From positions 38,397 to 102,396 of IMG/VR virus record IMGVR_UViG_3300030098_005194: DNA of 64,000 bases. One strand, written 5' to 3'. This stretch comes from a virus. Below, in pieces: positions 26,763 through 64,000 of this stretch (the first letter of the stretch is position 1; each line of letters starts with the position of its first letter). Below the pieces are notes generated by a model. The model worked only from the letters and a program-made list of their open reading frames with translations. It searched no databases and had not been told where the DNA came from. The position numbers were made by a program, and so were the translations under genes.

Positions 26763-26767
26763 TAAAA

Positions 26768-34139: not shown

Positions 34140-35365
34140 TATTGACCAGCTCCTTGTTGTCCTCTGAATAGCTGGTTGAATATATCAGCTATTTCATTAG
34201 CAGAACCGGCCCCTTGAGACGAAGGACTGGGCTCAGGTATTGTCTGGGAAAGGTTGCCACTCGCATCGAATATGTCAGGCATTTTTGGTTGTAATGCCCT
34301 CACATCAGGGTAAGCTTCTGCTATCCTTGCCCTTTGCTCATCAGTAAGTTCATCGCTCGGCGCAGGTTTTGGTTCAGGTGCAAAGAATTGTTCTGTCCTC
34401 GCTTGTCTCTCATCGAAACGCCTATCAGATTGTTCTTGTGCTAATTGCGCGGGCTCCTTTACTTTCTCTTGAACAGGTCTAGAAACCTTCACTGGTGGTT
34501 TTCTCGTGGGTGGTTTCACAAACTGGTCCAGTGTCATTTGACCTTCCGGTGGCATCACTGGTGGTTTTTCCTCTGATGGTTTTGGTAGAATTGGATTTCT
34601 CACTAAATTAGCAGCTGCTATATTAGCCGCTGGAGATGCTTCAGGGACATCGAAACCATATTTTTGAGCAAGAGCATTTCTTATTTTTCCCCAGCTCTCG
34701 GTAGCTCTTTGATTCTCTGGTAGTGTAGCTAACAATTCTGCGGCTTTCTTGTTTATGTCCTGTAAAGTCTGTGGCGCAAAATTTCCTAAGTTCTGAAGCA
34801 CATTCTGCATTTCAGGCATATTTGGTCTTTCAGCGGCCATTTGGTCTGAGGTCAATTGCCTATCCAAAGCATCCATTCTACCAGTTCTAGCAGCTCTTGA
34901 CTCTGCACCAGTTAGTTTTCCTGCATCAGAAGCTGGCTTTGCATAACCCTTGAATTCCCTCATGAATGCTTCATGACCATTTTTCTCATAATAACTCCTT
35001 AAGCCACTTCTAATTTTAGTAACTTGGTCCCAGAAATGTTGATAGTTTTTCATTTTTCTTTCGTATTCTTTGGTAGCTTGTGAGTGTCTATCCATCATTA
35101 TTTGATTTTTAGGTTTGGACCTATCGAGTCCTTCCTTGAGTGGTGGCACCTCTGTGGGTTTTTTGAAAATTTCAGGACCCAAATTTGGAGCTACTTCTCG
35201 TAGATATATACTCTTAGCCATATCGGTTAAATATTGATTTAGTGATTGAAGTTTTGCTCCACCACGACCAGTGCGGTCTTGTAATCTAACAAATCTTGTA
35301 CCAGCTTTTGATTTCTTCTTCTTTTTCTTGGCTTTGAGAAAGTCCCAAGAATACTGAAATGTCAT
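34139..35365 (-). CDS. putative internal head protein (408 aa) with W..LK leader and PIP-like QMTLDQF motif
   Basis: N-terminus MTFQYSWDFLK|AKKK; Pro-rich C-half. Confidence 0.6.
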   Translation of the reverse strand: MTFQYSWDFLKAKKKKKKSKAGTRFVRLQDRTGRGGAKLQSLNQYLTDMAKSIYLREVAPNLGPEIFKKPTEVPPLKEGLDRSKPKNQIMMDRHSQATKEYERKMKNYQHFWDQVTKIRSGLRSYYEKNGHEAFMREFKGYAKPASDAGKLTGAESRAARTGRMDALDRQLTSDQMAAERPNMPEMQNVLQNLGNFAPQTLQDINKKAAELLATLPENQRATESWGKIRNALAQKYGFDVPEASPAANIAAANLVRNPILPKPSEEKPPVMPPEGQMTLDQFVKPPTRKPPVKVSRPVQEKVKEPAQLAQEQSDRRFDERQARTEQFFAPEPKPAPSDELTDEQRARIAEAYPDVRALQPKMPDIFDASGNLSQTIPEPSPSSQGAGSANEIADIFNQLFRGQQGAGQ

Positions 35366-37059: not shown

Positions 37060-38190
37060 TCACTTTAGGTCACGAATGCTCCCGTGCGCTCCAAAGAAAG
37101 TGGTCCATATCTCGCCCATAGTTCGGTACAGTCCTTCCTGTCCTAGTCTGTTGATGGCGAATGGGTCACCAGTCTCAATTCCGCTCTCAAAGTATTGCGT
37201 AGGAATAGCTGTGCTAAAGTGTACGTAGTCTGTGTCTAGGAAGTACATCCTGCTTAGGCTGTCCTTTGGCATGTCCTTGGTTGGGATGATTGGTACACCG
37301 TTGTAGGTTGCCACGATGAACCCTGCCTCTACACCGGGGACACCCTTTACACCGTTGTAGGTTGGGGTAACTCTCTTCTCTTCCATGAACCTCTGCTGGG
37401 ACTGTAGCAACTGCTGTAGCCTCATTAGGGTGTCATATCCTGTTAGGATGACCTTGGGGTTTCCACCGCGCTCCCAGATTTGCTGGAACAATGTGTCCAA
37501 GTGGTCTAGGGATAGTGTCCTGTTTGTGCTTGAGCTGTTAGCTTCATCTTCTGCGAAAGCCCATGTGTTAGCACTTCTGTCAATGGAGTAGATGTCCTCA
37601 TCTCCAGCGTCGTAGTGGGTACCAGAGGTCATTGATGTGTTTCCAGTGGTAACTCTGTCCAGCGACTCAAAGTTGTTAGCTGCTGCAGTGGTAACATCTG
37701 TTAGAAGCATCTTGTTGACCATCTCAGCGTGGTGCTTGCCCATTTCTTCCTTTAGGACTGAGCGGATGTCTCCCAATCCGTCGTCTCTGTCTGCTAGGAA
37801 GATAGCTGTCTCGGACATGTCGAACGTGTGTGCGACCGTCTTTGGTTTTGCAGCTACGTGCTGGAAGGTAGGCTTCACTGTGTCTGGCAGTGTTGCGTTT
37901 TCTGCAACTCCGCCATGTAGGGCACCGCCGTTTGGCTTGCCTGTGATGACTCTCCATCCTGACCTGTCCCAAGGCTTCTTGGGTAGGATGCTGAATGCGT
38001 TGAACTCTTGGTTCAGTTGCGACCAGACCTTGCGCCCGTAAATTGCTTGGTATGTACCAGCAGTTGTGGACAGCATAGGACTGTCAGCCTTGAGTAGCTC
38101 GCTACCTGAGTAGGAGTAACCCATTGCGTTCCCGGCGCCATAGTAATAGCGCTCCATGTCTGTTATTGTTCGTACGTAATTTCTTGCCAT
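37060..38190 (-). CDS. major capsid protein (HK97 fold)
   Basis: Follows protease; GVAENATLP, PKTVAHTFDMSE, FESLDR, YNGVPII motifs; likely start MARNY; ELLK|AD candidate maturation site at 38089. Confidence 0.9.
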   Translation of the reverse strand: MARNYVRTITDMERYYYGAGNAMGYSYSGSELLKADSPMLSTTAGTYQAIYGRKVWSQLNQEFNAFSILPKKPWDRSGWRVITGKPNGGALHGGVAENATLPDTVKPTFQHVAAKPKTVAHTFDMSETAIFLADRDDGLGDIRSVLKEEMGKHHAEMVNKMLLTDVTTAAANNFESLDRVTTGNTSMTSGTHYDAGDEDIYSIDRSANTWAFAEDEANSSSTNRTLSLDHLDTLFQQIWERGGNPKVILTGYDTLMRLQQLLQSQQRFMEEKRVTPTYNGVKGVPGVEAGFIVATYNGVPIIPTKDMPKDSLSRMYFLDTDYVHFSTAIPTQYFESGIETGDPFAINRLGQEGLYRTMGEIWTTFFGAHGSIRDLK

Positions 38191-39050: not shown

Positions 39051-39605
39051 TTTTTTCACCTTTTCTTCTGTGTTTTCTGAGTCAGTCTCCTGCTTTAGAA
39101 TTCTAAATGTAGCTTCTGGATTTATCCCTTTTTCACAAATTGTGATTTCATGAAGCTCAAGCTTGCTGATTTCTTGATAGTCGCCGTGTCTTGGGTCGCT
39201 CTTCCTGACTCGCTTGAATGCTTGTCCTCCGATGCTGAATCCCCGTAGTTTGCCTTTCCTAATTTCGGCGGCAACTTCTCGTGCTTTTTCGATGTCGTCT
39301 CTAAGTTGTATAACCACAAACATGCCAACATCGTCAACTTCGCTTTTCCATAACCTCCCTTCTGTATCTGTATATGATGGTACTACTTCTCCTACCTGTA
39401 TATTTGAGTGAGCTAGTTGGACGTTTCTGTATTTCGGGTCGCTCATGAATTTCCGAAATCCGTCCTTCAATGCCTCCTTTGTAATTAAATCGCCTTGTTT
39501 GTCTACTAGCTCCACACTAGCGTATCCTGCAACAACGAGGTCATTGCCAGCCTTAAGGAGTCCAATGGACTCATCAACACCATAGAGACGTTCTTGTGAC
39601 AGCAC
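38196..39605 (-). CDS. HK97-family prohead protease fused to scaffold domain
   Basis: VAGYASVELVDKQGD, H in LAHSN, GFSIGG catalytic Ser, EITICEKGINPEA; coiled-coil C-half. Confidence 0.9.
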   Translation of the reverse strand: MLSQERLYGVDESIGLLKAGNDLVVAGYASVELVDKQGDLITKEALKDGFRKFMSDPKYRNVQLAHSNIQVGEVVPSYTDTEGRLWKSEVDDVGMFVVIQLRDDIEKAREVAAEIRKGKLRGFSIGGQAFKRVRKSDPRHGDYQEISKLELHEITICEKGINPEATFRILKQETDSENTEEKVKKMTEENDMQTQLGDVLARLETRLDSMEKAMPPQLKEAMKDKKDAKDDKEKAPAPDKKDDDKDEKMYADDDKKMKSDEYSDVISSEYLDWMENTLKSAGVDVAGARGHFDDLAKANLGSTPEEFDLDYGQTPNRESENGKPSTNAIARLGGKGEKKEVKKSDFLTPDLVSEADVEAAYEVYKAAAMEQEFRGSLESRFADRFAAERAEEIAKAEAAAYDARGPLDEVMKALSALNERIDNIGTVEAGTPIAKSEAEPAVEIPSTVDMHRMSWDEVHALADKAFRGE

Positions 39606-42600: not shown

Positions 42601-44881
42601 CTGTTTTGGTTCCGAACTCATGATATTGATTCCTATGTATACCTCTTTTTCTACCATCTTTAGACCTTAGAAAACCAACACTGTCTCTGGTTATTTCAGC
42701 TCTTGGGTTCCTGCTCCTTGACCAGAAGGTAGTGGCTCTTGGCGTGAGTGAATGAGCGGTATCGCTACCATTAGCCCTGTTTCTTGGTTTTTTGTCACCT
42801 AAATCTACATGACTGGTACCCAAGCTCTGGTCGTGCATGCTCATTATCTCGGCAGGACTGAAGCTCTCGCCTCTCTCTCTGACAACGTGGTGCATGGCGC
42901 CCAAGAAGCCCGACATGTCTGGTCTGGGTACGAAGAAGCCATTCTCATCCATTTCGCCAAACAAACCCGGTGCGATACTATTCAGCATGTCAAAGAAAGT
43001 AGTGGATTCCATGGGATTGCTACCAACCTGCAAGTCATGTGCCCAGTAATCAGATAGTCCTCTCAAAGTCCCATTTTTCTCTATGAAGTGATTTCTTATT
43101 TCTTCGGGTGCATCCCTTATGTCCGGGCCCGCACTCTTGGCGAACACGGCATTGGCATTGGCTATGTCCTTGCTGTCACGAGCTAGTGACATTCCATCTC
43201 TATACATCTCCTCTAACTGGTTGATGTAGTCATCTGCCTTCATGTTCTCATGAGCGAGGGGCTTTTTACCCTCGTCAGTTAGAAGCTCAGAGAGGGGATG
43301 CTCCTTCAGATGCTTCTTCAACTGGGGTATGGTGAAATTACTAACGGGAGCATAATCCTCTACCCTCAAAACTTCTCTAAGAGCCTCCTTCTCATCCATT
43401 CCTTTTTCTATTCGCTCGTCTATTGCATCTCGTATTTTCTTAGTGCGTTTTTCGCCATAGATGGGTATGTGTGTTAATTTTTGGTCGCCCTGTAATTCTA
43501 GTAGCTCATTATAATGGTTCAATAAGGAGTCGAACATGTTTCCATGTACCCCATGGTCTATTTTTGCTAATAGACTACGAATTGGCTCCGTTTCACTACC
43601 AGTGTACTCTGTGCCATCCAGCTCATCGCTTTCCAAGTGTTTAGCTAGATTGGGCTGTCCCCGGTTATGGGGCATTTGGCTGTGGAGATACAAAGGCGTC
43701 ATTCTCTTCTGAAAGTTTCTCCTTAGTCTTCCAAGTGGTATTTCAGTGCCATCATCGAGCTTTATCTTGTCGCTTGTGTTTCCCTTGTTCTCCTTAAGAT
43801 GCTCTATGACTTTGGTTCTCTCAACAGGACTGAGCCATTCCAAGCCAAGGCCATATCCAAGAAGTCCAAGTCTGTGTGGGTGTTGCCTCTCAGTAGGAAC
43901 CTTTCTCTGAACGCTCTCTGCTACGCGAGAGCCCTCTTGTCTCTCCCCTGCTCTTTTGGGAAAAAGCTTGCTATAGATGTCATCATATTCTATTTTTTCT
44001 TCTTCAAAATTTCTACCCTGCCATAATTCAGCTGCTTTCTCAAGGTGCATTTCCCTGATATCCTTATCAGAGGCGCCTTGGGATTTAGCCTTGTCAATCA
44101 TCTCTTGATTTTGACTTGACCACTTTGTGAAAGCCCTCTCATACAGACCCTCTTGAAAAGCACCAGAAGTACCTACTTGCTCAGAAATGGTTCTATTTGA
44201 GTCGTTGGTGGTTAACCTGCCTAAGAAACCATGGGTAATCTCATCATCCATATCAGCTCTTTTTGATTTTCTGATTTGGCCTATGATTATCGGATTACGT
44301 AAATTATCGTAATGTGTCTCATGTGCCCTCTCCGCATCAGCATGCGAGGATGCAACGCTGTTTCCATCGTCGTCTTTTCTGACATAACCCAAGAGTTTCT
44401 CAACCATTCTAGAATTACCAGTAGAGCTGTTCTTCTTGCGTAGTGGGTGTATCGATTCATGGAAATGATGATGTTTGTAATTGCTATCACCGGGAACGAC
44501 CCTTGGGAAGAGCGAGGAAGCTAGCTCGATATTCTCATTGTCAATTAACTCATTCACATGCCTGTGGCTGGCAACAGCGGGACCAACAGTTCTTCTGCTT
44601 ATTCTGCCTTTTTTGTCGTAGTCATACCCCTCATCAGCACGCCCGCCAAACGCTAGCTCTGCTGAGAGGTCACCGATGGTTTTTTTGTACAACAACATCG
44701 TGCTGGCTTCATAGCAGAAATCATCAACAGGGTTGTTCTGTAATATCATTTCCTTATTCATTATGTTTCGTAGACTATCCATGTAGGCAGTAGCCTCTTC
44801 AGTGTAATCATCACAAGAAACTATGCTCTTGAGTAAATCATCCCTAGCGCGAAGATGAATGACATAATCGTTCTCTTGCAC
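39671..44881 (-). CDS. 1736-aa putative internal head polyprotein with degenerate ATP-dependent DNA ligase domain near C-terminus
   Basis: EWVVSVMEEGTR / YVMDAVL / HIFDIMHYD / ERIKLL / LLLRDAKSTY / KW align with ligase motifs I, III, IIIa, IV, V; lies between portal and protease. Confidence 0.75.
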   Translation of the reverse strand: MQENDYVIHLRARDDLLKSIVSCDDYTEEATAYMDSLRNIMNKEMILQNNPVDDFCYEASTMLLYKKTIGDLSAELAFGGRADEGYDYDKKGRISRRTVGPAVASHRHVNELIDNENIELASSLFPRVVPGDSNYKHHHFHESIHPLRKKNSSTGNSRMVEKLLGYVRKDDDGNSVASSHADAERAHETHYDNLRNPIIIGQIRKSKRADMDDEITHGFLGRLTTNDSNRTISEQVGTSGAFQEGLYERAFTKWSSQNQEMIDKAKSQGASDKDIREMHLEKAAELWQGRNFEEEKIEYDDIYSKLFPKRAGERQEGSRVAESVQRKVPTERQHPHRLGLLGYGLGLEWLSPVERTKVIEHLKENKGNTSDKIKLDDGTEIPLGRLRRNFQKRMTPLYLHSQMPHNRGQPNLAKHLESDELDGTEYTGSETEPIRSLLAKIDHGVHGNMFDSLLNHYNELLELQGDQKLTHIPIYGEKRTKKIRDAIDERIEKGMDEKEALREVLRVEDYAPVSNFTIPQLKKHLKEHPLSELLTDEGKKPLAHENMKADDYINQLEEMYRDGMSLARDSKDIANANAVFAKSAGPDIRDAPEEIRNHFIEKNGTLRGLSDYWAHDLQVGSNPMESTTFFDMLNSIAPGLFGEMDENGFFVPRPDMSGFLGAMHHVVRERGESFSPAEIMSMHDQSLGTSHVDLGDKKPRNRANGSDTAHSLTPRATTFWSRSRNPRAEITRDSVGFLRSKDGRKRGIHRNQYHEFGTKTGNTKSEALDSKKAHNSSEIMREYLMSGAQYKFGSIDPNTGRRRLGSPVMRIPVNEMLEGKHGFPFENDGEGGYSAFEKALFALGGSLGIEDTKRIAELQSELEEIELSGEDASQELIDELKGRIHTQQSNLRAKLNSFNKDTLVQKERRAEAEERARMEVAKNITIPAMLEINPNLFDPNNPEQTVADLSQAMHDAELIMKHMPHSFHGQSIRDIMIGDAVDEQTIDAMVGGDMFRRKANVLEKEGTLLSFPESGKVEDMHVTASLIGMGLPYDNPGYREYMRELLESLEGKPAHYAMTTAQLAAHANEDFHLFDDDGMKDDPMRAHELMEDELKRYRGQIRGLKLPDNHKNDFNNNNEHYNSINNNYMKLSMAHKGNTAIQHGLSLSNLPKDIHGNEDKGKGAERLRYEWAMARAKRKANSLVLFNPEARVAAPTPPPAMPEGQMTLDQFGDTGTNLKRPIKMGDAKIGPVTNPNSDAIIGSRYTSAGLQLQMSMELPAPSASLNLGYDGNMEYGTNTSAGPAVPPSEPVIKELMEHFQEGSYNQMDAYFQVNGVNEAMLPSTTSNMERVSESNPMSGLQVPHEIAKSLPKEMPLIEPYHKIFDMEDLQELRGFTGEWVVSVMEEGTRVKVTRKSNRIEVKDDDNEDVGTSDGMRSSLRKIGKNNYVMDAVLNSSGLHIFDIMHYDDTDVTDMPTRERIKLLRGQFDSNEDVFVPGPFNLKVTDDDGLSDAIKFLQRENKGSKLLLRDAKSTYMKGEEKHPKWILMTKSDDDYHVPFGMEIDGEVFILHFDHDILKYDIVEDSLENPRSALGGLKDRDYTMILAKSLEKYWEPAFQQMLKAEKRKIKEIVEEDEDDKEEDEGISEEDAKRIGRQSGGVLKPNEDQNILLKPSTLEALEKIEKILDTLEKGHFPMTAGKGLGVDVGSDIDSPRGPTKLANEATLPDYDMKERPEQDPEKPEDYPKRKKIASRSNDS

Positions 44882-45042: not shown

Positions 45043-45768
45043 TTATCCCTCCGTGAGATGTCCTCTTACTGGGTTCTCATGGGGATTCATGTTTGGCTGA
45101 AGAGCAGTTAAGTCAACTGAATGACTAGAAGCGCCCTTGTTTGCTACATCATCAGAATCTAATAAGGATTGATTAGTGTAGTAGAATGAATTGTATGTTT
45201 GGCCACCAGTCTCTATCATAAATTGGGCATGCTCTGGTTTTGTACCATAGCTTTGTAAATAATGATGTTCACCTTTCTTGAGTTTCTCGTTTTGTTTTCT
45301 ATGTGCCGGTGTGCAACCTGCTTTCATGGCTTTTGATGAGGTTGACATACACATTCCTTTCTCCATGTCCATCTTCCTCTCGCCACAAGACGGGCATATT
45401 CCCATGCCCTTTCCTTTTTGCAGACCATCCATTAAGACTACATCTCCATGTGGTGATATTTTTACGTTGTTCATTTTATCAATGACCTTTTTACACTCTG
45501 CTTTGGAAACTCCGCACTCTTTTGCGCAATCATCTAAGCTAGCTGCACCACCTTTTCTCTTAAGACAAGAGATAATTTTAGCCTCATGTCCCTCACCCTT
45601 TTTCTTTTCATCCTTACTGCCTTTTCCGTCAGCAGCAAAATGTGGAACTTTCTTTCCATCATGTTCAACCATCTCAAGTTTTTCTGCTTTCTCAAGAAGT
45701 CTCACGGCTTTCTTTAACATTTCACTGACTTCATATGAAGCCTCACTGGGTATTGGTCTTACTACCAT
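45043..45768 (-). CDS. multi-module head protein (KKVPHFAADGKG motif, winged-helix, CxxC)
   Basis: wHTH-like EAKIISCLKRKGGAASLDDCAKECGVS...; modules separated by xLxK|A/G sites. Confidence 0.6.
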   Translation of the reverse strand: MVVRPIPSEASYEVSEMLKKAVRLLEKAEKLEMVEHDGKKVPHFAADGKGSKDEKKKGEGHEAKIISCLKRKGGAASLDDCAKECGVSKAECKKVIDKMNNVKISPHGDVVLMDGLQKGKGMGICPSCGERKMDMEKGMCMSTSSKAMKAGCTPAHRKQNEKLKKGEHHYLQSYGTKPEHAQFMIETGGQTYNSFYYTNQSLLDSDDVANKGASSHSVDLTALQPNMNPHENPVRGHLTEG

Positions 45769-46100
45769 TAGTACATCTCCTGTGTGGTTTGATGTTGGGA
45801 AGCCATCTCATGAATCTCCTCCCAACTCATCTCATGAATTTCCTCATTTGTAAATTCATTTTGAGAATTGCTCTTCAAGATGTTGCTTTCAGCTTCAAGG
45901 TCACCTCTAAAACCATCAACCATCAAATCCTCAGTATGTGGTGTTCTCATAGCGACGTAACCAGCCTTCCTGAGTAGTGCGTTTGGTGAATTAACCGTTC
46001 CTTCTAATCTAGATAATTTAGCATCCATTTCTTCCATTTTTCTTATGAGCGTCTGCATGAGTTTCTGAGCAGTGCCTTCGTCGGTTGCTTCTTCACTCAT
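45768..46100 (-). CDS. small scaffold-like protein
   Basis: N-terminal coiled coil; C-terminal MSWEEIH matches the protease/scaffold MSWDEVH. Confidence 0.6.
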   Translation of the reverse strand: MSEEATDEGTAQKLMQTLIRKMEEMDAKLSRLEGTVNSPNALLRKAGYVAMRTPHTEDLMVDGFRGDLEAESNILKSNSQNEFTNEEIHEMSWEEIHEMASQHQTTQEMY

Positions 46101-51743: not shown

Positions 51744-54110
51744 TCAATCACCCCTGAAAGACAGCTTGACTATCTTGATATCTCTCTCAGAGAAACCGAA
51801 AGACTTGTTCAACCTCATCCAATCACCCTTGCTCTCGTTTATCAACCTGATATCTTGAGGGGCGAGGCCAAGCTTTTTGGCAATTGTGGAAACATCATGA
51901 GGAGAATCTATGGAAAGCTTATCTTTACTTACATGCTTGATTATTGTGGAATCGGTTTTAGCATCTTTGATTTGAAGTCTTTCCATGGTCTTGATTAGCC
52001 TATCTTGCACTTCTTCAACCGAACCCTCTCCTTTCATGTACTCTGTGATGAGTCTCTGGTACGGGTCACTGAAAGCGCCTCTAAAACGCTGTATTTCTGG
52101 TTGGGTAATTGGTGCAGTGCTACCACCAGACCTAGCACCGCCTGTTCTTATCAGTTGTCTCAACTGGTCATCACTAAGATTAGCCGCCCCTGCTCTAGCA
52201 GCGGTGATTTGCTCAGGCGTCAAACTAGGAGTTGCTAGATTTGCAGAAGTTGGTGGTTGTGTTTGTGCTACGTTACTAGGTGGTGTGGCCATTTGTGTCA
52301 CTTGAGGTACGACTGGTGCAGGTGGCAAATCTTGTGTTGAGCCACCCATCGCTTCTGTAGTTCCTTCGGCTATTGTGTTTTCAACAAGAGGGGAGTACCT
52401 TACATGGTCTGCCAAACTCATACCTTGATTAGTTGGTAATTGAAAACTGGTGCTGACCGCAGGTTGTGTTGGTAAGTCTATTGGATGAGTTAGTCTTGTT
52501 TCATGACCTTTCGCATCAGCTAAGAACTCTGATATCGCTTCCATGACACCTCTGATTTCCTCCACTTCGCCTTCATATGGCTCATGATGCTTTATGTTGT
52601 ACTTCGCTTCTAGCTCAGGGGTTAATTCTGTAGTTCTCAGTTTGAAATTACCAGCATTGTTACCCATCGCTTCCTCATGTCCACTATGAAGTGCCAAAGC
52701 ACGCATGTCCTTGGCTCTGAGATGCCTACCAGTTCCGTACCTCCCTTGTACAGCACCGACGTGATTTTGAATGCCACCTAAATCCAAAGCACCTGCTGGT
52801 AATTCAGCAGTGTCTTGGAGTCCCGTGTGCAACTCAGTGAAGGCGCTAGCAAGTCTACCAGCAGGTGAATCTGGTGAAGTTTTGCCAAATATTTTCATAA
52901 AAGCATCATAACCAAGTAATTTAAAAAGAAACTCTTCTCTTTGTCCGTCAGTAGCTAGAATTTGTGAAAGTGGCCTTCCCTGATACATAGTATTGGCAAG
53001 AGCAGGGTGTTCAAGTGGATTCAGAGTTTGCTTCACTCTTCCCGTAGCAATAGCTTCTCCACCTACACTACTGTGCCCTATCGCATCCATGATTTCTTGA
53101 TTAGCAACTCTTACTGCCCCTGTTGGTTCTGCACCCTCGCTATATTTTCGTGTGCCTTTTCTAACTCTTCTAAAGAATCTATCAGGTAACATATGTGCTA
53201 TGCCATATGCTGATGTATCAGGAAAAGCAATATCAGTATCTATCCCGGCTTCACTCAATCTAGAAAGTATATCATTTCTGAAAGCGTGCCTTGTCTGATA
53301 ATTACCACCATACACTTGCCCTGTTCTAGCTGAAGTATTATTTCTGTAATATTGCGGATTTTCAGGGGTTGATTTTGGACTTAGTGCAAAACTTAGGTAA
53401 GCGCTTCTTATATGTGGTCTGGTAAGAAAATCATTTCTACCTTGTGGTGGGTCAAGATTATGTTTTTCTTTTAGGATTCTAGCGAGAGCGGGTTGAAAAG
53501 GATTAGCCAAGGAATCTAGAAACATCCCGTGAGGTGATTTAACACCATGAAAATTTCTGTAACCAGTTATCAGTTGTTTCTGTCCATCGATGGTAACATA
53601 ATGCTGTCTAGCTCTTCCTTCTCGTTCAAATTGAGGTCCTTGGTAGTCACTCATGACTAGCCTTCGCCAAGCCTTATCACCTATATCGGGAAGGTGATTA
53701 TCTGGATTGTCTCTATATAGAGGGTCATTGTTTGTTGCTTCTATGGCTTCTTGAACCAACTTTGCAGCATCATCATCAATACCCTCACTCTTGAGTAAAT
53801 TACCCAAATTGTGTATAACACCATCTATACCATGAAAATGTAGGCCACCAAGCTCGTCTTTGTACACCAATTCGCCATGTGGTCCGATTTCATATTTTCC
53901 GGGTATTATATTTCCAACGCCAAACTCCCCTGTTTCTTCTTCAGCATGACTACCAGTATGTGCGAAAGGAGGAGCGTGGTCTATCCCGTTTGGGTCAGTG
54001 TTCTTGACCTCTTCCGGTGGATGTCTTTGGGCTCTTTGTTTTCCTTCCCAATAAATGAAATTTCCATCGCTCTTTTTCAGGGTTTTAGGTAGAACTCTAA
54101 CCTTGCTCAT
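51744..54110 (-). CDS. putative internal virion protein (788 aa)
   Basis: Leader MSKVRVLPKTLKK|S; QRLITEYMK|G before a helical C-terminal domain. Confidence 0.6.
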   Translation of the reverse strand: MSKVRVLPKTLKKSDGNFIYWEGKQRAQRHPPEEVKNTDPNGIDHAPPFAHTGSHAEEETGEFGVGNIIPGKYEIGPHGELVYKDELGGLHFHGIDGVIHNLGNLLKSEGIDDDAAKLVQEAIEATNNDPLYRDNPDNHLPDIGDKAWRRLVMSDYQGPQFEREGRARQHYVTIDGQKQLITGYRNFHGVKSPHGMFLDSLANPFQPALARILKEKHNLDPPQGRNDFLTRPHIRSAYLSFALSPKSTPENPQYYRNNTSARTGQVYGGNYQTRHAFRNDILSRLSEAGIDTDIAFPDTSAYGIAHMLPDRFFRRVRKGTRKYSEGAEPTGAVRVANQEIMDAIGHSSVGGEAIATGRVKQTLNPLEHPALANTMYQGRPLSQILATDGQREEFLFKLLGYDAFMKIFGKTSPDSPAGRLASAFTELHTGLQDTAELPAGALDLGGIQNHVGAVQGRYGTGRHLRAKDMRALALHSGHEEAMGNNAGNFKLRTTELTPELEAKYNIKHHEPYEGEVEEIRGVMEAISEFLADAKGHETRLTHPIDLPTQPAVSTSFQLPTNQGMSLADHVRYSPLVENTIAEGTTEAMGGSTQDLPPAPVVPQVTQMATPPSNVAQTQPPTSANLATPSLTPEQITAARAGAANLSDDQLRQLIRTGGARSGGSTAPITQPEIQRFRGAFSDPYQRLITEYMKGEGSVEEVQDRLIKTMERLQIKDAKTDSTIIKHVSKDKLSIDSPHDVSTIAKKLGLAPQDIRLINESKGDWMRLNKSFGFSERDIKIVKLSFRGD

Positions 54111-55408
54111 GCAGTGGCTCCCCCACGATTTTCAGGAAGGATACCTGTCATATCAGTGGCGTCCTCGGTTCCTCCTTGTGGTCGTGAGGTCTGTTTGAAT
54201 CCACCATTCTTGCTCTTGGGTTTGTCATCCCCAGCTCCAGCAGTGTCTTTGGTTCCCATCGATTTATTCTTCTTGTCCTTGTCTCTAAGTTCTCTTCTGA
54301 TTTCAAACAGCATTCTTCTCATCTCGGCTATATCCGATGCTGTAATTTTTGCTTTGAGAATATCACTGTATGGTATATGGTCAGAACTCATCTGAAACTG
54401 TTGGTTTGGGCTTGGCATCGGCATTGGTGGCGCTATCGCCGTGACTGGTGGAGGTCCCATTACGCTTTGTCTTAGACCCATTTTACCCATAGACAATCCA
54501 GCAGAAGGAGTCTTAGGTCTGTTTAAATGAGGCATCGAAACTCTATGTGACATTCTAGGAGAGTGTATTCTGGGCTTTCTAACACCAACTCCACTAAGAA
54601 GCCTACCGCCACCAGTTGGTCCTGCTTGGTATTTTCTTTGTCCAAACCTTCTTTGTGAAGATGTGTCTTGTCTTACTCCACCTAATCTTTTTCTAGCTTC
54701 CATCGCACCTTGATAATCTCTATATCTAGCAGGGTCTTTTGATAATGGTTGTTTGACCGACACACCCCTGTGTTCCATTTCAACTGCTTTTGGTGCATCT
54801 TTCATTCCAGTTAATTTACCTCTTGAAACTGCCCTTCTAACACTTTTTCTTCTTCTCTCAGTAGCAGTTTTTGGTCCCAAAGAACCACCGGGTGGCATCT
54901 TGAACTGTCCCGTAGAAGGTCGGAATTTCTTACTTCTCTCTTTCTTATCTTTCTTTGCTTTCTTACTTTCTTTTGATTTTAAAAGACTAGACCAAGCATT
55001 ATCCATAACCTCACTCATGGCGAACATATTTCCACCAGCAGCGCCGGGTCCTTTTGCTTGTGTAGCAAGACTTGTGAGAAAACCACCATTACCGGGTGGC
55101 CCAGTGATAGCTGAGATTTCTCTTTCAGCATTTCTTTTATCTGGGCTGTACATACCATCATCGTCATCTTCGTTCTCTTCAGAGGGTGGTAAGTCTTTCG
55201 GTCTAATACGAATGTGCTTTACTTTTGCACGCTCTCTCTTTTCCTTTTCTTTTCTTTTTTGTTTCTCTTCATATTTCTCATCACGATGCTTTGCGTCGTC
55301 AGGACTGTACGTATCTTCTTCGTGATTATTTCGATACATATGTGATGATTCACTACGTGGATTATACATCCTCGTATCGGAGGAACGTCCCTGCATACCC
55401 TCCGTCAT
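54107..55408 (-). CDS. basic low-complexity putative core protein (433 aa)
   Basis: Internal SEVMDNAWSSLLK|S tag followed by a very Lys/Arg-rich region; DILK|A. Confidence 0.6.
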   Translation of the reverse strand: MTEGMQGRSSDTRMYNPRSESSHMYRNNHEEDTYSPDDAKHRDEKYEEKQKRKEKEKRERAKVKHIRIRPKDLPPSEENEDDDDGMYSPDKRNAEREISAITGPPGNGGFLTSLATQAKGPGAAGGNMFAMSEVMDNAWSSLLKSKESKKAKKDKKERSKKFRPSTGQFKMPPGGSLGPKTATERRRKSVRRAVSRGKLTGMKDAPKAVEMEHRGVSVKQPLSKDPARYRDYQGAMEARKRLGGVRQDTSSQRRFGQRKYQAGPTGGGRLLSGVGVRKPRIHSPRMSHRVSMPHLNRPKTPSAGLSMGKMGLRQSVMGPPPVTAIAPPMPMPSPNQQFQMSSDHIPYSDILKAKITASDIAEMRRMLFEIRRELRDKDKKNKSMGTKDTAGAGDDKPKSKNGGFKQTSRPQGGTEDATDMTGILPENRGGATA

Positions 55409-58580: not shown

Positions 58581-59294
58581 TCATGAGGTCAGAAGTTCTA
58601 TCATAGTAGGTTCGACGTTCCAACCTATCCTCGTAGCCATAAAGGAACGTTTAGTGGGTATGCCCGCTTTTTGTAGTCTAATGAGGTCATCTCTGAATGG
58701 GTCGAATATCTTGTGTTCGCCTATTCTTCCCTGTGGCCATAATCTACTAGCAGTCTCATCAAAGAACCTATCCGCCTTGTTAGCCACTAGCATAATCACC
58801 TTTGGGGAGTATTTCCTTCCCTTCCACCAAGAACGTAGATTTCGATATCTCCAGTTTCTAGTGGTAAGCACATCCACTAAAAATTTGAAACCTGCTATTT
58901 GGTCAAGACTTTCCTTCCCCCCTTTGAATGCTCGGTCATCAAACATGAAAACTACAGCCTCCACCTGTCTGGCGACCATATCATCTATCCAAAGATTCCA
59001 GTATTCTTTCTGACCGCCCATATCAGAAGAGTGAACTAATCTAGTGTGATTGTCATATTTCACTCTTTTAGCCGTGGGTTTAGGTAGAATGTATTGACTT
59101 AACAACTTGTAATGCTTAGTCCTATCCTCTTCAGGTATCTCCTCCATCTCACCGGGTGTGGTCATGTATCTATCGAGAGTGGTTTTTCCAACTAAAGAAG
59201 CACCATAGATTCCCACTCTTCTTGGCCTCCAAGAGTCATAGAGGGTTCTACCCCAAATGGCTGCGCCAACTAAGGCGCTTCCAGCCATGCTCAT
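58581..59294 (-). CDS. Arf/Sar1-like small GTPase
   Basis: G1 GASLVGKT, G3 DMGGQ, G4 NKAD, G5-like MAT; N-terminal hydrophobic/amphipathic helix. Confidence 0.85.
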   Translation of the reverse strand: MSMAGSALVGAAIWGRTLYDSWRPRRVGIYGASLVGKTTLDRYMTTPGEMEEIPEEDRTKHYKLLSQYILPKPTAKRVKYDNHTRLVHSSDMGGQKEYWNLWIDDMVARQVEAVVFMFDDRAFKGGKESLDQIAGFKFLVDVLTTRNWRYRNLRSWWKGRKYSPKVIMLVANKADRFFDETASRLWPQGRIGEHKIFDPFRDDLIRLQKAGIPTKRSFMATRIGWNVEPTMIELLTS

Positions 59295-60351: not shown

Positions 60352-60672
60352 TTATACGATTTTAACCCAATTAGACTTAACAATCGTCGGTTTCCCACCA
60401 ACACCCTGCTTTTTGGCCCGCTTTCTTTTTGTTGCGGCCCGTTTCTGTCCACTTGACATGCTTCCAGATGTCTTCGGAGTCTTGCTCGATACCTTTACTG
60501 AGGGTCTGCATTTCGGGTAGCCCTTTCCTGATAATTTTGCCTTTGACCGTCCACAAGGAGGATGTTTGCCTGTCTTCGGGTCCTTCCTCGATACGTCCAC
60601 CCACTTCTCCTTGAACCAACGATTCAGGTTCTTCACAACTAACGTGTTGTGGCAGGTGCAGCGTTCGCTCAT
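60352..60672 (-). CDS. small basic protein (RWFKEKWVD...CGRS...YPKCRP family)
   Basis: CTCH...LVVK|N leader; very basic. Confidence 0.7.
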   Translation of the reverse strand: MSERCTCHNTLVVKNLNRWFKEKWVDVSRKDPKTGKHPPCGRSKAKLSGKGYPKCRPSVKVSSKTPKTSGSMSSGQKRAATKRKRAKKQGVGGKPTIVKSNWVKIV

Positions 60673-60863
60673 TTCTTCTTCCCCTTCTTGCCTCTGAATT
60701 TTCCTCTACAATACTGTACGGCCCATCCATTAGCATAGGCAGAGGGATAAACTTTGAATTTTCTTTTTGCTGCCGCTTTTCCTTCCGGGCAGAGTTTCTT
60801 TTCCAAAACATCCCAAGCACCGTTCATACCTACGCAGTGACCACAACCACAAGAACCTATCAT
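60669..60863 (-). CDS. small basic protein (KRKFKVYPSAYANGW family)
   Basis: CGCGHC + MNGAWDVLEK leader. Confidence 0.7.
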   Translation of the reverse strand: MIGSCGCGHCVGMNGAWDVLEKKLCPEGKAAAKRKFKVYPSAYANGWAVQYCRGKFRGKKGKKK

Positions 60864-60877
60864 CTAATATCCCACCG

Positions 60878-61159
60878 TTATTTTTTCTTATTATCCATTT
60901 CTTTTAATTCAGGATGATATAGCATTTTTACTTTCTTGGCGTCTTTTTTAATAGATTTTCCATCTACTAAGACTTCTATTGGATATGGTTCATGGTCATC
61001 ATACCAATAAGCCATTTCATAGGCTCCATTTTTCAATAGTTTTACAATTAAACCCCTTTTGTGTTTTTTATCATCTGCTTCAAGAATCATTTCCTTACCT
61101 TGTGGAAGAATCAAATCAGCTTCCTTTCTCTTTTTTAATAAGTACCACCAGTCCGACAT
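60878..61159 (-). CDS. small protein with WWYLLK leader
   Basis: Start MSDWW coupled to upstream stop (TGATG); AT-rich gene. Confidence 0.65.
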   Translation of the reverse strand: MSDWWYLLKKRKEADLILPQGKEMILEADDKKHKRGLIVKLLKNGAYEMAYWYDDHEPYPIEVLVDGKSIKKDAKKVKMLYHPELKEMDNKKK

Positions 61160-61911
61160 CAACAGTTCCACCTCTTCAATGCTGCACCTTTGGGAGTTAG
61201 TTTACCGTCCTTACTAGTTGGTCCCTTAGAACCACTCATACGAGCGCAGAATGACTTGCGCCTTTTGGCCCTCTTGCTTCCGGGTTTGAGTTTGGATGGC
61301 TTGGTTGTGACAGGTGGTTTTAGATTAGCGCCTGTCTCTCGCTTGAACTTAGCACGACCAGCAGCATTTAAGCCACCCTTTCTATGATGCCTCTTGGGAT
61401 TGTAACCGTGAAACGGCTTTGACTTCTTCTTTCCTTTTTCAAAAACAGAGTCCAAAAGAGCCATGGAAGCCTGTTGCATTGGTGTGCAACAATCACAGGT
61501 TTCAGATTTCAAAGTCAATGGCACAAGGTTCTGTCTAGGTATACCACCAGCTCTGACATTACTCTCAGTTCCAGCAAATACACCACCTGCTGGCTCTGCT
61601 TGTCTTACTGGTTCTGAAAGTCCCCCTGCTCTCACGCCAACCACGCCTACGCTACTCTGAGGTAAGCCTAGCTTTTTGGCTCTTTCTTGTGCAAACCTAA
61701 GTGCCAGCTCCCTATCAGGTGAAGTGTATGATATTTTTTCCTCTCCCCTTAGTGGTTTGGGAATGTAGCGTTTGGACCTACCTGTGGTTGGACCTCCCCT
61801 GATTCCCTCTTCCATAACTGCTGGCATATCAACAGTACCATGATATTCGCTAACTGGGCCCATGCTACTAGGAAAATCTTGATGAAACTCACCGAGTTCA
61901 GTCTGTCTCAT
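61159..61911 (-). CDS. two-domain protein: ADP-ribosyltransferase-like domain + basic SFCARM...WNC domain
   Basis: YHGT...GI...YTSPDRELALRFA...IP..NL ART pattern; internal tag; GGLNAAGR...RRKSFCARM...RWNC. Confidence 0.65.
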   Translation of the reverse strand: MRQTELGEFHQDFPSSMGPVSEYHGTVDMPAVMEEGIRGGPTTGRSKRYIPKPLRGEEKISYTSPDRELALRFAQERAKKLGLPQSSVGVVGVRAGGLSEPVRQAEPAGGVFAGTESNVRAGGIPRQNLVPLTLKSETCDCCTPMQQASMALLDSVFEKGKKKSKPFHGYNPKRHHRKGGLNAAGRAKFKRETGANLKPPVTTKPSKLKPGSKRAKRRKSFCARMSGSKGPTSKDGKLTPKGAALKRWNC

Positions 61912-63320
61912 CTTACTTTCACTCTCCTTAGAGTACCTCGATTCTTGAAATGTCTGGCTCTATTAGCATGCTCAGGCTCAAGAGTCAACTTACCGCCTTG
62001 TGTGTGGCTCACATCCATGTGGTCGCCAGAGCCGTAAATGCCTCTTTTTCTTCTTTCAGCATGTAATTCACGCTGGTACTTTCTTCTCTCAGGGGTCTTT
62101 TCATACCTCTTGTCATACTCCAACTTACGCCTCATAGCTTCTGGTGACTTACGTTCTTTGAGCAACTGCATTGCGATGTCCATTGGTTCGCTACGGGTAA
62201 AACGAGTAGCATCATTAAATGGAAATCCATAGAAAGAAGGGCCTTCATCATCCTGTATTCTAGCCTGATTAACTCTTATTGGTAGTTCATTGTATTGTCC
62301 CAATACTAATGCTCTTAAAAGCGCAATATCCCTAACGGATAAGTCTCCTAAGTCTCCAGTATTGATTCCCCGCTCGACAGCGTTGATATGGCCTGATGTG
62401 AACTCAACATCGCCTTCTTTTGTGCCGGTTGTTTCAGTCTGTTCAGGTAATCCTTGCCACCATGGACCGTATTCACCGGGGTCGTATCTCCCATCAATAT
62501 ACGCCTCTCTGTAAGCGTTTGCTCTTCGATTAGATTCATCGGATAAAGATGAGTCGCCTTCCAAACCCAACTCCGATACGTGACCCGGATGAATATCGGG
62601 AGCGCGTTCACCGAATACTTCCTCATATGATTCACGGGGAAAATCATCTTCTTTGAGCAACTGCATTGCTATGTTCATTGGTTCCCCAGTTCGGATGGTA
62701 CGATTTTGCCTTCTCATGGCCGCCAACCTCTTCATCTGTTTCTTCGACATACCGTGTGCATTTACTACTTTATCGACACTCATAGCGGCAGCCTTGAATG
62801 GTTGAGGTGCCTCGTGATGCATCTCCGAGCGACGTAGCATGACTGTGTTTAGCTCAGGTTTCATGTTATTTTTTCTATGTGGTCTTACGATAGCAACAAT
62901 TGAATCACCGTTGCTCTTTGTGTAAGTTTCATCTGGTATTCTATGTTCATCCAAAATGTGAGTTCTGATTGCTAAGTTTCTTGGCGCACCGGGTTTGTAA
63001 AGACCGTATTCATCCAAAAAATCTCCCATAGCGCTTGTTATTCTATCTCTAACCTCTTGTTGTTCTCTCTCATTTACTACTCTTTCTCTGTCAGTCAATC
63101 TCTCATGAGAGTGAGGAGCGAAGAAATTTTGACCCAAATTAACAACAGGGGGTCTAGAAACATCGACTTGTGGTGCAGTAACTGGGTTTGGTTTTGCATA
63201 TTGCATCTGCCAAGCTCTTTCTGCTGCATCCAAATCCTTCTCTTCATTACCAATTTGTGTGTAATTAGGAGGTAGCATCTCCTTCAACAAGAGCATCCAA
63301 GCTTGCTCAAAAGGGTTCAT
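61908..63320 (-). CDS. three-module polyprotein (RNase-like / acidic / HNH-like) separated by repeated tags
   Basis: MNPFEQAWMLLLK; two EPM(N/D)IAMQLLKE; C-terminal DHMDVSH...HANRAR. Confidence 0.7.
   Translation of the reverse strand: MNPFEQAWMLLLKEMLPPNYTQIGNEEKDLDAAERAWQMQYAKPNPVTAPQVDVSRPPVVNLGQNFFAPHSHERLTDRERVVNEREQQEVRDRITSAMGDFLDEYGLYKPGAPRNLAIRTHILDEHRIPDETYTKSNGDSIVAIVRPHRKNNMKPELNTVMLRRSEMHHEAPQPFKAAAMSVDKVVNAHGMSKKQMKRLAAMRRQNRTIRTGEPMNIAMQLLKEDDFPRESYEEVFGERAPDIHPGHVSELGLEGDSSLSDESNRRANAYREAYIDGRYDPGEYGPWWQGLPEQTETTGTKEGDVEFTSGHINAVERGINTGDLGDLSVRDIALLRALVLGQYNELPIRVNQARIQDDEGPSFYGFPFNDATRFTRSEPMDIAMQLLKERKSPEAMRRKLEYDKRYEKTPERRKYQRELHAERRKRGIYGSGDHMDVSHTQGGKLTLEPEHANRARHFKNRGTLRRVKVR
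62154..62684. repeat. 36-bp direct repeat (62154-62189, 62649-62684; 34/36 identical) encoding EPMxIAMQLLKE
   Basis: ttctttgagcaactgcattgc(g/t)atgt(c/t)cattggttc. Confidence 0.9.
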
Positions 63321-63646
63321 TTTGCTCTCTCCTTGGTTTTCTTCTTTTGTTGCTCAATAAATCTCCTGTATATTGCAGCCTCACTGGTCTTGCCCATCTC
63401 CCTCGCCCTCTGCTCCATGGCTATCGCGGCTTGGGTCTTGTGAGCGTGACTGCGACTGCTGCCGCGTATCTTCGCCACCGACGCTCTGGCCTTCGCCGGG
63501 TCCTTGAAGCCGAGGCCGTGTATCGTGCCCTTTGGGTCTTCATCGGTATACAGGTCAGAGTGCTTTTTGGATTTCGCGGGCTGCCCCTTCTTGCGTGCTA
63601 TCCTCGGTCCCTTCAGCACAGTCCACGCTTGGTCGAAGGCGTTCAT
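63317..63646 (-). CDS. basic protein (KKHSDLYTDEDPKGTIHGLGFKD family), GC-rich gene
   Basis: MNAFDQAWTVLK|G leader; GGTGAG SD. Confidence 0.75.
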   Translation of the reverse strand: MNAFDQAWTVLKGPRIARKKGQPAKSKKHSDLYTDEDPKGTIHGLGFKDPAKARASVAKIRGSSRSHAHKTQAAIAMEQRAREMGKTSEAAIYRRFIEQQKKKTKERAK

Positions 63647-63852
63647 TTTCTTCTCACCACTCTGACAAGTCCAGTTTGTCTACGCATCTTTGGTCTAATG
63701 TTACCGCGAGATAAATTTCGGGCATACCTAGCCCTAGTTTTGCGATTTTTGGTTTTTCTAGCAAGCCTCTGCACTTTGGCTTGTGCTAATCTTTTTGGCC
63801 TATCTTGTATGTAAGAGCGACCCTTGTAGACCAATACCTCACGGTCACCCAT
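63643..63852 (-). CDS. small Arg/Lys-rich protein
   Basis: VLVYK|G leader; protamine-like composition. Confidence 0.65.
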   Translation of the reverse strand: MGDREVLVYKGRSYIQDRPKRLAQAKVQRLARKTKNRKTRARYARNLSRGNIRPKMRRQTGLVRVVRRK

Positions 63853-63891: not shown

Positions 63892-64000
63892 CTATCCGAC
63901 TATCATGCCAGCAGCAGTAGTAGCTCCATTAGTGGCGCCTGTAGTAACAGGTGCAGCAGGTGCAGCAGGTGCAGCAGGTGCAGGTGCAGCAGGTGCAGGT
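63892..64000 (-). CDS. 3' end of a gene with Pro-Ala tandem repeats (partial)
   Basis: ...PAPAAPAPAAPAAPAAPVTTGATNGATTAAGMIVG*; gcaggtgca repeats 63948-64000. Confidence 0.6.
   Translation of the reverse strand, partial: PAPAAPAPAAPAAPAAPVTTGATNGATTAAGMIVG

Follow-up and report, generated by a model that had tools for sequence, protein, structure and literature searches.

A 12-residue helical tag ending in lysine recurs on unrelated proteins of a group A magrovirus and may address them to the capsid

Here we describe a 12-residue helix with a terminal Lys that is common to many unrelated small proteins of a marine virus of archaea, a group A magrovirus with a 102-kb genome, of which a 64,000-nt stretch (the window) was analysed. 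Our preferred explanation, which we regard as evenly balanced on sequence evidence, is that this tag acts as a portable address-and-cut label, analogous in function, but not homologous, to the T4 capsid-targeting sequence. We base this reading on the portability of the tag, selection at the peptide level and an apparent action on whatever lies downstream, together with the matching signature of the viral prohead protease, the distribution of the tag, and the precedents of T4 and HK97. The sequence-only reading of the window had likewise proposed a capsid-loading tag, an interpretation that the comparative data now partly support. A literature search found no paper on the motif.

The tag follows the pattern [M/S/G]-[N/T/E]-[P/A]-[F/M]-[D/E]-x-A-[W/M/F]-x-h-L-(L/E)-K. 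In the 102-kb genome, six clear copies, each scoring 12-17 bits, are recovered with a profile made from related viruses, and a seventh, diverged copy in p408 is recognised through its orthologues. A strict regular expression gives seven matches against 0.96 expected from shuffles (maximum of 5 in 300), four of the seven falling within the first 10 residues of a protein. The nine peptides listed by the sequence-only reading all translate as given from the minus strand, with two coordinate ranges one codon off; as instances of the tag, six are recovered by the profile and p408 through orthologues, but two or three are degenerate. The relevant features of the window are as follows:

63643..63852, minus strand: p69, a basic protein and first complete gene of the array, untagged, with homologues in 31 loci
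63611..63646, minus strand: tag MNAFDQAWTVLK, N-terminal type, in p109 (63317-63646), 16.7 bits
63282..63320, minus strand: tag MNPFEQAWMLLLK, N-terminal type, in polyprotein p470 (61908-63320), 12.1 bits
62652..62687, minus strand: tag GEPMNIAMQLLK, internal in p470, 12.2 bits
62157..62192, minus strand: tag SEPMDIAMQLLK, internal in p470, immediately 5' of the phrog_6437 module, 14.7 bits
61513..61869, minus strand: predicted ART-fold cargo domain of p250 (61159-61911), untagged here (AF2 and Foldseek)
61435..61479, minus strand: tag-like MQQASMALLDSVFEK, degenerate or doubtful, internal in p250 with CDCC before and DUF6321 after, no profile match
61168-61386, minus strand: DUF6321 module of p250 (Pfam, 1.5e-17)
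61133..61159, minus strand: MSDWWYLLK, a doubtful tag at the probable start of p97 (60878-61171), no profile match
60798..60836, minus strand: tag variant CVGMNGAWDVLEK, Cys-flanked, in p64 (60669-60863), 12.8 bits
54977..55015, minus strand: tag SEVMDNAWSSLLK, internal in p433 (54107-55408), 15.3 bits
38196..39605, minus strand: prohead protease (Peptidase_S78, PF04586; Pfam, 4.5e-9) fused to a scaffold-like C-terminal part
38089..38103, minus strand: capsid protein junction SELLK/ADS (K34/A35), a putative maturation cut, invariant in close relatives
35333..35365, minus strand: MTFQYSWDFLK, diverged N-terminal tag of p408 (34139-35365) in the head-tail region, no profile match

Within this genome, p470 is a single ORF that joins several unrelated modules and carries three tags, all predicted helical (residues 3-15 for the N-terminal tag and 213-223 for the tag at 62652..62687, the latter with low-confidence linkers on either side); given the low confidence of the model (mean pLDDT of 52), only the helix positions are used. 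The phrog_6437 module that follows the last tag Lys of p470 has matches among small proteins of Synechococcus phages (Syn5 gp50 is one) and occurs as a stand-alone 101-aa ORF in relatives; no tag is present in Syn5 gp50 or S-CRES1 gp96, the two that were translated. Similarly, the homologue of the p109 cargo, the N-terminus of the cyanophage protein SynMITS9220M01_097, is untagged. The p433 tag is directly followed by a very basic module of ~275 aa, whose cargo cluster accounts for 75 tagged copies in 80 related loci, with two tags in some orthologues. Orthologues of p408 bear canonical tags at the same N-terminus (e.g., VSAFDEAWSVLK and MNKFDIAWSVLK), ~2.9 kb after the start of the major capsid protein (MCP) gene. 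At the position of the p250 peptide MQQASMALLDSVFEK, a relative has APFDEAWGLLK ahead of its DUF6321 module, and the sole relative of p97 has MSWFEILK. The p64 variant is kept in 72 loci; p64 and p106 (60352-60672, minus strand) jointly span Pfam DUF5872, and the variant, lying between Cys motifs, may be part of a zinc-binding fold. Outside the window, a tenth copy, the tag-like MNRPPLEAWTFLK, is found in the replication half of the genome.

Across 80 related loci, the coding strand has 387 tags and the opposite strand 14. The tag precedes ~102 unrelated cargo clusters, 63 of which are singletons, bearing out the suggestion that the motif is portable between unrelated domains. Tags either open a protein or separate the modules of a polyprotein, with up to four in a single ORF of relatives and a conserved start of their own, [S/G]-E-P-M, at internal positions; the same cargo modules occur fused in polyproteins or as separate genes. 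Since 142 of the 387 are N-terminal and only 11 lie near a C-terminus, the tag appears to act on what comes after it. Of 228 copies, 223 have the Lys and two have Arg, and conservation ends at this Lys when tallied per cargo cluster, the following P1' residue being weakly constrained (A 21, E 14, S 9 and G 9 among cluster representatives). That a distinct domain begins right after the Lys, as first proposed from the window, agrees with this end of conservation as well as with untagged cyanophage homologues, which begin 0-2 residues from the tag/cargo boundary, and with p250, which begins exactly at the residue after the tag of its relatives. In those relatives, MNPFDQAWTLLK stands immediately before the RQTTLGE of the ART-fold cargo, which may be tagged, untagged or preceded by another N-terminal module, always with the same junction residue. 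Tag codons vary from copy to copy, placing the conservation at the level of the peptide and not the DNA, and the hydrophobic moment of the tag is 0.52, compared to 0.31 in shuffled tags.

The cargoes range from an ART-fold enzyme and an HD-type hydrolase to many basic modules and many unknown proteins; among 20 cargo representatives, only HD_4 and DUF6321 exceed the curated Pfam cut-off. For p250, residues 15-133 are modelled by AF2 with pLDDT of 85-91, and nearly all leading Foldseek matches (E of 3e-3 to 0.2) belong to the ART superfamily, among them KptA/Tpt1, pertussis S1, Arr and cholera A1, so that the modelled cargo domain is assigned an ADP-ribosyltransferase fold. The sequence-only reading had envisaged an exchangeable array of injected effectors and DNA-condensing proteins at 60-64 kb. 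This region is indeed one of the arrays of such genes that recur throughout the virus clade; the arrays are hypervariable, differing among relatives with up to 12 tags per 14.8 kb, but the p69 and p106 modules never carry a tag (0 of 20 distinct p69-like ORFs from the 31 loci, and 0 of 46 for p106), and only ~30% of cargoes are basic. The arrays are located upstream of the terminase genes and adjoin a GTPase operon that is conserved in >185 relatives. Their genes could be early genes; no common promoter motif was seen by eye in the intergenic regions, and a single marine metatranscriptome has no more than six short contigs on these genes (covering p433, p250, p470, p109, the surroundings of p64 and the first part of the stretch), which give no indication of timing or transcription.

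The h-L-K end of the tag matches h-x-K junctions in the capsid protein and in the HK97-type protease itself, whose S78 gene lies directly upstream of the MCP gene. Among 123 divergent MCP representatives (31-58% identity), 120 have Lys at the junction, preceded by a hypervariable leader of 5-160 aa and followed by a conserved [AST]D-xP-xL-TTT-G, with a hydrophobic P3 residue in 85%. Two representatives have Gln or Arg at the junction; a viral contig scan with one such representative, P0158, returned no close relative, and the distant-MCP scan yielded mostly the same clade. By sequence, no solved structure is related to the MCP, and two halovirus papers make no mention of capsid cleavage. In the protease, the N-terminal leader terminates in GLLK/AG (39552-39605, minus strand) and the protease domain in FRILK/QE; all 59 distinct orthologues show a variable leader followed by an invariant h-[LI]-[LIV]-K/[AGS]. 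Nevertheless, h-L-K tripeptides are common, and what the junctions of the capsid protein and protease mark could be the edges of folds instead of cuts. The tails of the protease and p110 (MSW[DE]E[VI]H) gave no tag-profile match, sharing only W-x-E-h with some tags.

The tag is restricted to this virus clade and, within it, concentrated around the arrays, at ~0.3/kb versus 0.01/kb around the capsid gene. Four complete relatives contain 32 AWxxLK matches, compared to none for reversed-pattern controls, and 30 of the 32 lie on one strand, which would be the structural strand if these relatives are organised as the studied genome. The motif is rare near the capsid gene and largely off the replication strand; one tag-like gene lies in the replication half. 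Halovirus HVTV-1 has no AWxxLK match. A relative of 69 kb, estimated to be 83% complete, shares the capsid junction but has no AWxxLK match either, indicating that a Lys-cutting protease does not entail the tag. A host-type targeting signal was rejected for a sample of 401 Thermoplasmatota genomes, whose share of Poseidoniales is not reported, as the motif there is at chance level (8 matches versus 5 reversed-pattern controls).

Under the address-and-cut label, residues 4-11 would fold into a short amphipathic helix, one face of which bears F/M, A-W and h-L. By this helix the protein behind the tag would dock onto some component of the procapsid during assembly, the likeliest partners being the scaffold portion of the protease-scaffold protein and the capsid protein's inner face. 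The S78 prohead protease would then cut at the invariant h-L-K that closes the tag, releasing cargo within the head and separating the modules of polyproteins such as p470 and p433, and the cargo would leave the head along with the DNA. Docking, cleavage, packaging and delivery are inferred roles of the tag, and we count against them the weak constraint at P1', the commonness of h-L-K tripeptides, the possibly early expression of the arrays, the untagged p69 and p106, the potential zinc-binding context of the p64 variant, the tag-free 69-kb relative, and the tag-like gene of the replication half. A membrane-binding amphipathic helix is an unlikely role for the tag, judging by its net neutral or acidic rather than cationic character.

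An alternative, which we consider unlikely though worth keeping in mind, is that the tag is an uncut docking helix for a hub outside the capsid, such as a host factor, the viral thermosome, or the adjoining operon of GTPase and membrane protein, and serves a shifting repertoire of host-takeover proteins that are produced in the cytoplasm. The F-x-x-x-W-x-x-L spacing on an amphipathic helix is typical of short docking motifs, the arrays are as variable as early or accessory genes and sit beside the conserved GTPase operon, one tag-like gene belongs to the replication half, and the virus does encode a thermosome (PMC5434244). However, a near-absolute Lys with little Arg, at which conservation ends, better fits a P1 residue; furthermore, the tag shares its end with the capsid and protease junctions, lies almost always on one strand in complete relatives, and has no detected users among the sampled host-lineage genomes.

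Cutting without targeting, in which the tag is simply a polyprotein linker and N-terminal copies are leftovers of gene fission, appears less probable again. The two to four internal tags of polyproteins, their distinct [S/G]-E-P-M start and the occurrence of modules both fused and separate all agree with such a processing site, yet ~140 of the 387 tags are at true N-termini, where a cut would take off just 12 residues. The eight positions before h-L-K are moreover conserved far beyond the h-x-K of the capsid junction, implying information beyond the needs of a cut alone. HK97-type prohead proteases act inside procapsids, so cutting by this S78 enzyme would already imply packaging. A DNA-level element for recombination or translation start, with the peptide as by-product, is very improbable: the internal p470 pair forms a 36-nt repeat at 94% identity (the sole such nucleotide sharing among copies), the p109 and p470 starts have a common GG(A/T)GAGA-type leader, and module junctions fall at the tag, but internal copies have no start codon at position 1, the amino-acid pattern is kept over hundreds of diverged copies, and a nucleotide-level repeat was rejected because synonymous positions differ freely between copies.

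In the surface ocean, magroviruses count among the most abundant viruses of archaea; both viruses and hosts are uncultured. The tag flags, by sequence alone, the accessory proteins likeliest to travel in the particle and act first in the host, a set of >100 families including ART-fold and HD-type enzymes. If the address-and-cut label is correct, tag-and-cleave loading arose independently on an HK97-type assembly line, and proteins could be loaded into HK97-like shells by means of a compact natural tag. It is further possible, at slightly under an even chance, that group A magroviruses possess a general loading system in which the 12-residue tag suffices to send any protein or polyprotein into the capsid and the S78 protease clips the tag off. 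The virus could then deliver a dozen or more enzymes and DNA-binding proteins, in a rapidly changing assortment, into Marine Group II archaea. Such a capsid-targeting system would have no precedent outside T4-like phages or in any archaeal virus, and its polyprotein cargo would likewise be a first.

The literature documents both precedents raised for the window: HK97 cleaves its capsid protein at K103/S104, and T4 has a capsid-targeting sequence. The giant phages phiKZ and SPN3US offer a further parallel, with many head-internal proteins, including ejection proteins with propeptides, that a single prohead protease cuts at the short consensus A-X-E (PMC10052503). These propeptides are long and mutually dissimilar, and are not known to include a portable 12-residue tag common to unrelated cargo. 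In HK97, the cut at K103/S104 removes the delta domain of the capsid protein (PMC10275583), and the virus studied here resembles HK97 in having an S78 protease gene next to an HK97-fold capsid gene and a putative cut after Lys where a variable leader gives way to a conserved mature N-terminus. Whereas HK97 carries its scaffold on the capsid protein, here the scaffold is fused to the protease and the MCP leader has only 34 residues. To our knowledge, HK97 does not load unrelated cargo by a common tag.

T4 does so with its capsid-targeting sequence. This peptide of 10 N-terminal residues is shared by divergent internal proteins; targeting requires positions 4 and 7, processing positions 8 and 10, and the prohead protease gp21 also cuts Alt, an ADP-ribosyltransferase that is packaged too (PMC9026906). 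The likeness to the magrovirus tag lies in a short N-terminal peptide common to divergent proteins (10 residues in IPI-III versus 12 here), with an aromatic residue at position 4, hydrophobic residues near the end and a stop at the protease P1 residue (putative here), and in cargo that varies among relatives, is often basic and includes a (here predicted) ADP-ribosyltransferase. In contrast, the two peptides have no sequence similarity, the putative P1 here is Lys and that of T4 is Glu, the host is archaeal, and the magrovirus tag, known from sequence alone, is also found internally, giving polyproteins of 2-4 modules, and precedes far more cargo families per virus clade. With an HK97-type S78 protease in place of gp21 and a motif unrelated to the T4 peptide MKTYQEFIAE, the system proposed here would be an analogue of the T4 system and not a member of it.

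The nine lysine-ending peptides that a sequence-only reading had listed in the source genome, a group A magrovirus record, and interpreted as a portable head-targeting and cleavage tag, each translate as written there. Related viruses supplied 268 copies for a tag profile of 13 columns, which scores six tags of the source genome at 12-17 bits and its next best match there at 5.9 bits.

Profile-positive tags in the source genome (predicted proteins, minus strand)
p109: one tag
p470: three tags
p64: one tag
p433: one tag

A strict regular expression gives seven matches against 0.96 expected, four of them inside a protein's first ten residues. The p408 peptide MTFQYSWDFLK has no match with the profile; p408 orthologues begin with canonical tags (e.g., VSAFDEAWSVLK), so the peptide is a diverged true copy. 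Degenerate tag-like peptides are MSDWWYLLK (p97) and MQQASMALLDSVFEK (within p250), and the tag-like MNRPPLEAWTFLK starts a 225-aa gene product in the replication half, outside the window, whose sole relative begins MTIHDAWAFLK. A Cys-flanked subtype may belong to a zinc-binding fold and not be a free tag:

60798-60863 and 61435-61510, minus strand: two tag-like peptides ending L-E-K or F-E-K, with Cys clusters before them (CGCGHC, CDCC); the p64 peptide has a further Cys after it (KLCPEG)

Across 80 related loci, fetched with the GTPase gene beside the arrays as anchor, the profile at 8 bits or more detects 387 copies on the coding strand versus 14 on the opposite strand, with the consensus [M/S/G]-[N/T/E]-[P/A]-[F/M]-[D/E]-x-A-[W/M]-x-h-L-K; these counts are low estimates, since the W position is F or L in some copies. 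An exact DNA pattern for P-F-D-x-A-W-x-x-L-K retrieves 79 IMG/VR stretches, most with several tags (maximum 12 in 14.8 kb), and these are arrays of successive small genes with a tag at the start of each. In 401 Thermoplasmatota genomes the motif is no commoner than chance (8 matches versus 5 in controls), and it is absent from HVTV-1 and from a relative of 69 kb (estimated completeness 83%; capsid protein 49% identical). The tag is a hallmark of this virus clade; none of the papers searched mentions it.

58581-59294, minus strand, and neighbours: the small GTPase-like gene beside the arrays, with at least 185 relatives in IMG/VR (identity 66-99% among the 80 listed); many contigs carrying it stop 1-9 kb upstream of it

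The source record comprises 102,396 bp in IMG/VR, with an estimated completeness of 97%; the window covers its bases 38397-102396. Genes run on the plus strand in its first 38 kb, which encodes an RFC-like clamp loader and a thermosome subunit (recognised from N-terminal sequences), and all run on the minus strand from 38.5 kb of the record onward, where they include a large terminase, an HNH endonuclease, the portal, a 1736-aa protein, a prohead protease of family Peptidase_S78 that carries a fused scaffold-like part, an HK97-fold capsid protein (MCP) and a 5697-aa ORF. The closest cultured relatives of the MCP belong to HVTV-1, HCTV-1 and HCTV-5, 100-kb haloarchaeal siphoviruses (33-34% identity), and gene content and relatives agree with what has been published on group A magroviruses, viruses of Marine Group II archaea (PMC5434244). 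A 21.8-kb contig in an alphaproteobacterial bin (NZMJ01000138.1, 'Maricaulis sp.' MAG) carries a thermosome 100% identical to that of the source genome and is probably mis-binned magrovirus DNA.

9688-26781, minus strand: the single 5697-aa ORF, in the tail region
39671-44881, minus strand: the 1736-aa protein, between portal and protease, with a weak, sub-threshold ATP-dependent DNA ligase domain match (18 bits, residues 1437-1518); its positional counterpart in HVTV-1 has 1314 aa and is annotated 'zeta toxin'

The sequence-only reading would have been refuted by a tag just as common among tail or replication proteins, which is not what the counts show. The GTPase-anchored loci hold ~0.3 tags per kb and the 569 kb surrounding the capsid gene 0.01 per kb, every match in the latter being the p408 orthologue. 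AWxxLK occurs 7-9 times per genome in four complete relatives (reversed-pattern controls, 0), with 30 of 32 matches on one strand (binomial p ~7e-5, if these relatives are built like the source genome, whose replication strand makes up 37% of the DNA).

The tag is portable. Sequences following it form ~102 BLAST clusters, 63 of them singletons, and many of these cargo clusters are found both as stand-alone genes and as polyprotein modules. The p109 cargo resembles the N-terminus, without a tag, of a T4-like cyanophage protein, and the last p470 module resembles small Synechococcus phage proteins, of which the two translated, Syn5 gp50 and S-CRES1 gp96, are tagless. In relatives the p250 N-terminal domain directly follows MNPFDQAWTLLK, and p250 of the source genome has its Met start exactly at the relatives' tag junction; another relative has a different module fused at the same junction. 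Conservation stops at the Lys (one count per cargo cluster). Tags near the C-terminus are rare (11 of 387), so the unit is the tag plus what comes after it.

L003 (fetched locus), 1-1789: protein 097 of Synechococcus phage SynMITS9220M01, a T4-like cyanophage protein, a string of modules with no tags between them that resemble the array's small basic modules (p109-type by BLAST, DUF5872-like by eye), with an apparent DUF192 domain as well

The cargo is varied. Residues 15-133 of p250 have a predicted fold (pLDDT 85-91) whose leading PDB matches are nearly all of the ADP-ribosyltransferase superfamily (KptA/Tpt1, pertussis S1, Arr, cholera A1); with weak E-values (3e-3 to 0.2), this predicted structure supports a putative ADP-ribosyltransferase fold. 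One further cargo cluster is an HD_4 domain, and several modules at 60-64 kb belong to basic families also known in marine phages (DUF6321, DUF5872, phrog_6437), cargo overall being ~30% basic and 27% acidic. The proteins p69 and p106 never occur with the tag. The leftward gene train of the record begins upstream of the array, since an ORF upstream of p69 runs off the contig.

60352-60863, minus strand: DUF5872 split over genes overlapping by ATGA, p64 covering profile positions 5-43 and p106 positions 55-114; homologues of both occur in more than 60 related loci
63892-64000, minus strand: the Pro/Ala-rich ORF upstream of p69, running off the contig end

The tag ends in h-L-K, which also occurs at junctions of the MCP and the protease. 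In an alignment of 123 divergent MCP representatives (31-58% identity) the leader spans 5-160 residues and varies in both sequence and length; 120 of them have Lys after it and then the conserved [A/S/T]-D-x-P-x-L-T-T-T-G, with a hydrophobic P3 in 85% (SELLK|ADS in the source genome; MSK|ADN or VSK|ADN in haloviruses). The protease (59 distinct orthologues, the most distant 56% identical) likewise has a variable leader of ~15 residues ending in an invariant h-[LI]-[LIV]-K|[A/G/S] before DLVVAGYASVE, and its domain ends at FRILK|[E/Q], followed by a variable-length linker. HK97, whose protease is the S78 type member, has its capsid protein cut at K103/S104 (PMC10275583). When tags are anchored on [PA][FM]xxAW alone, 223 of 228 distinct copies close with Lys and 2 with Arg. 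This conservation suggests that the tag would be cut after its Lys.

37060-38190, minus strand: the MCP
38196-39605, minus strand: the protease-scaffold, with the S78 domain at about residues 19-171
38196-38260 and 45768-45830, minus strand: a shared C-terminal end, MSW[D/E]E[V/I]H-x-[L/M]-A, on the protease-scaffold and on the 110-aa protein encoded after the portal; it is kept in every protease orthologue and is likely a capsid-binding tail of scaffold-like proteins

We put tag-and-cleave loading into the head at about an even chance. For the tag's helix part the hydrophobic moment is 0.52, versus 0.31 in shuffled tags, and a low-confidence model of p470 places its three tags in helices (3-15, 213-223 and 378-389) with poorly predicted linkers between them; such a helix could also dock, uncut, on a hub other than the head, which we think unlikely beside the near-invariant Lys. 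A role in processing only is a still more doubtful reading, given a consensus that extends well before h-L-K. An element acting at the DNA level seems very improbable: codon use varies freely between tag copies, except for the two inside p470, which form a 36-nt repeat (94% identical).

For the favoured reading, loading into the head with cleavage, the nearest known system is, by analogy, the T4 capsid-targeting sequence. This comprises 10 N-terminal residues, positions 4 and 7 being needed for targeting and 8 and 10 for processing, and is carried by divergent, often basic internal proteins; T4 too packages and processes an ADP-ribosyltransferase, Alt (PMC9026906). On this reading the logic of the two would agree point by point, but the peptides have no sequence in common, the protease families differ, and the magrovirus tag ends in Lys where that of T4 ends in Glu. 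Unlike its T4 counterpart, the magrovirus tag is also used internally, building polyproteins.
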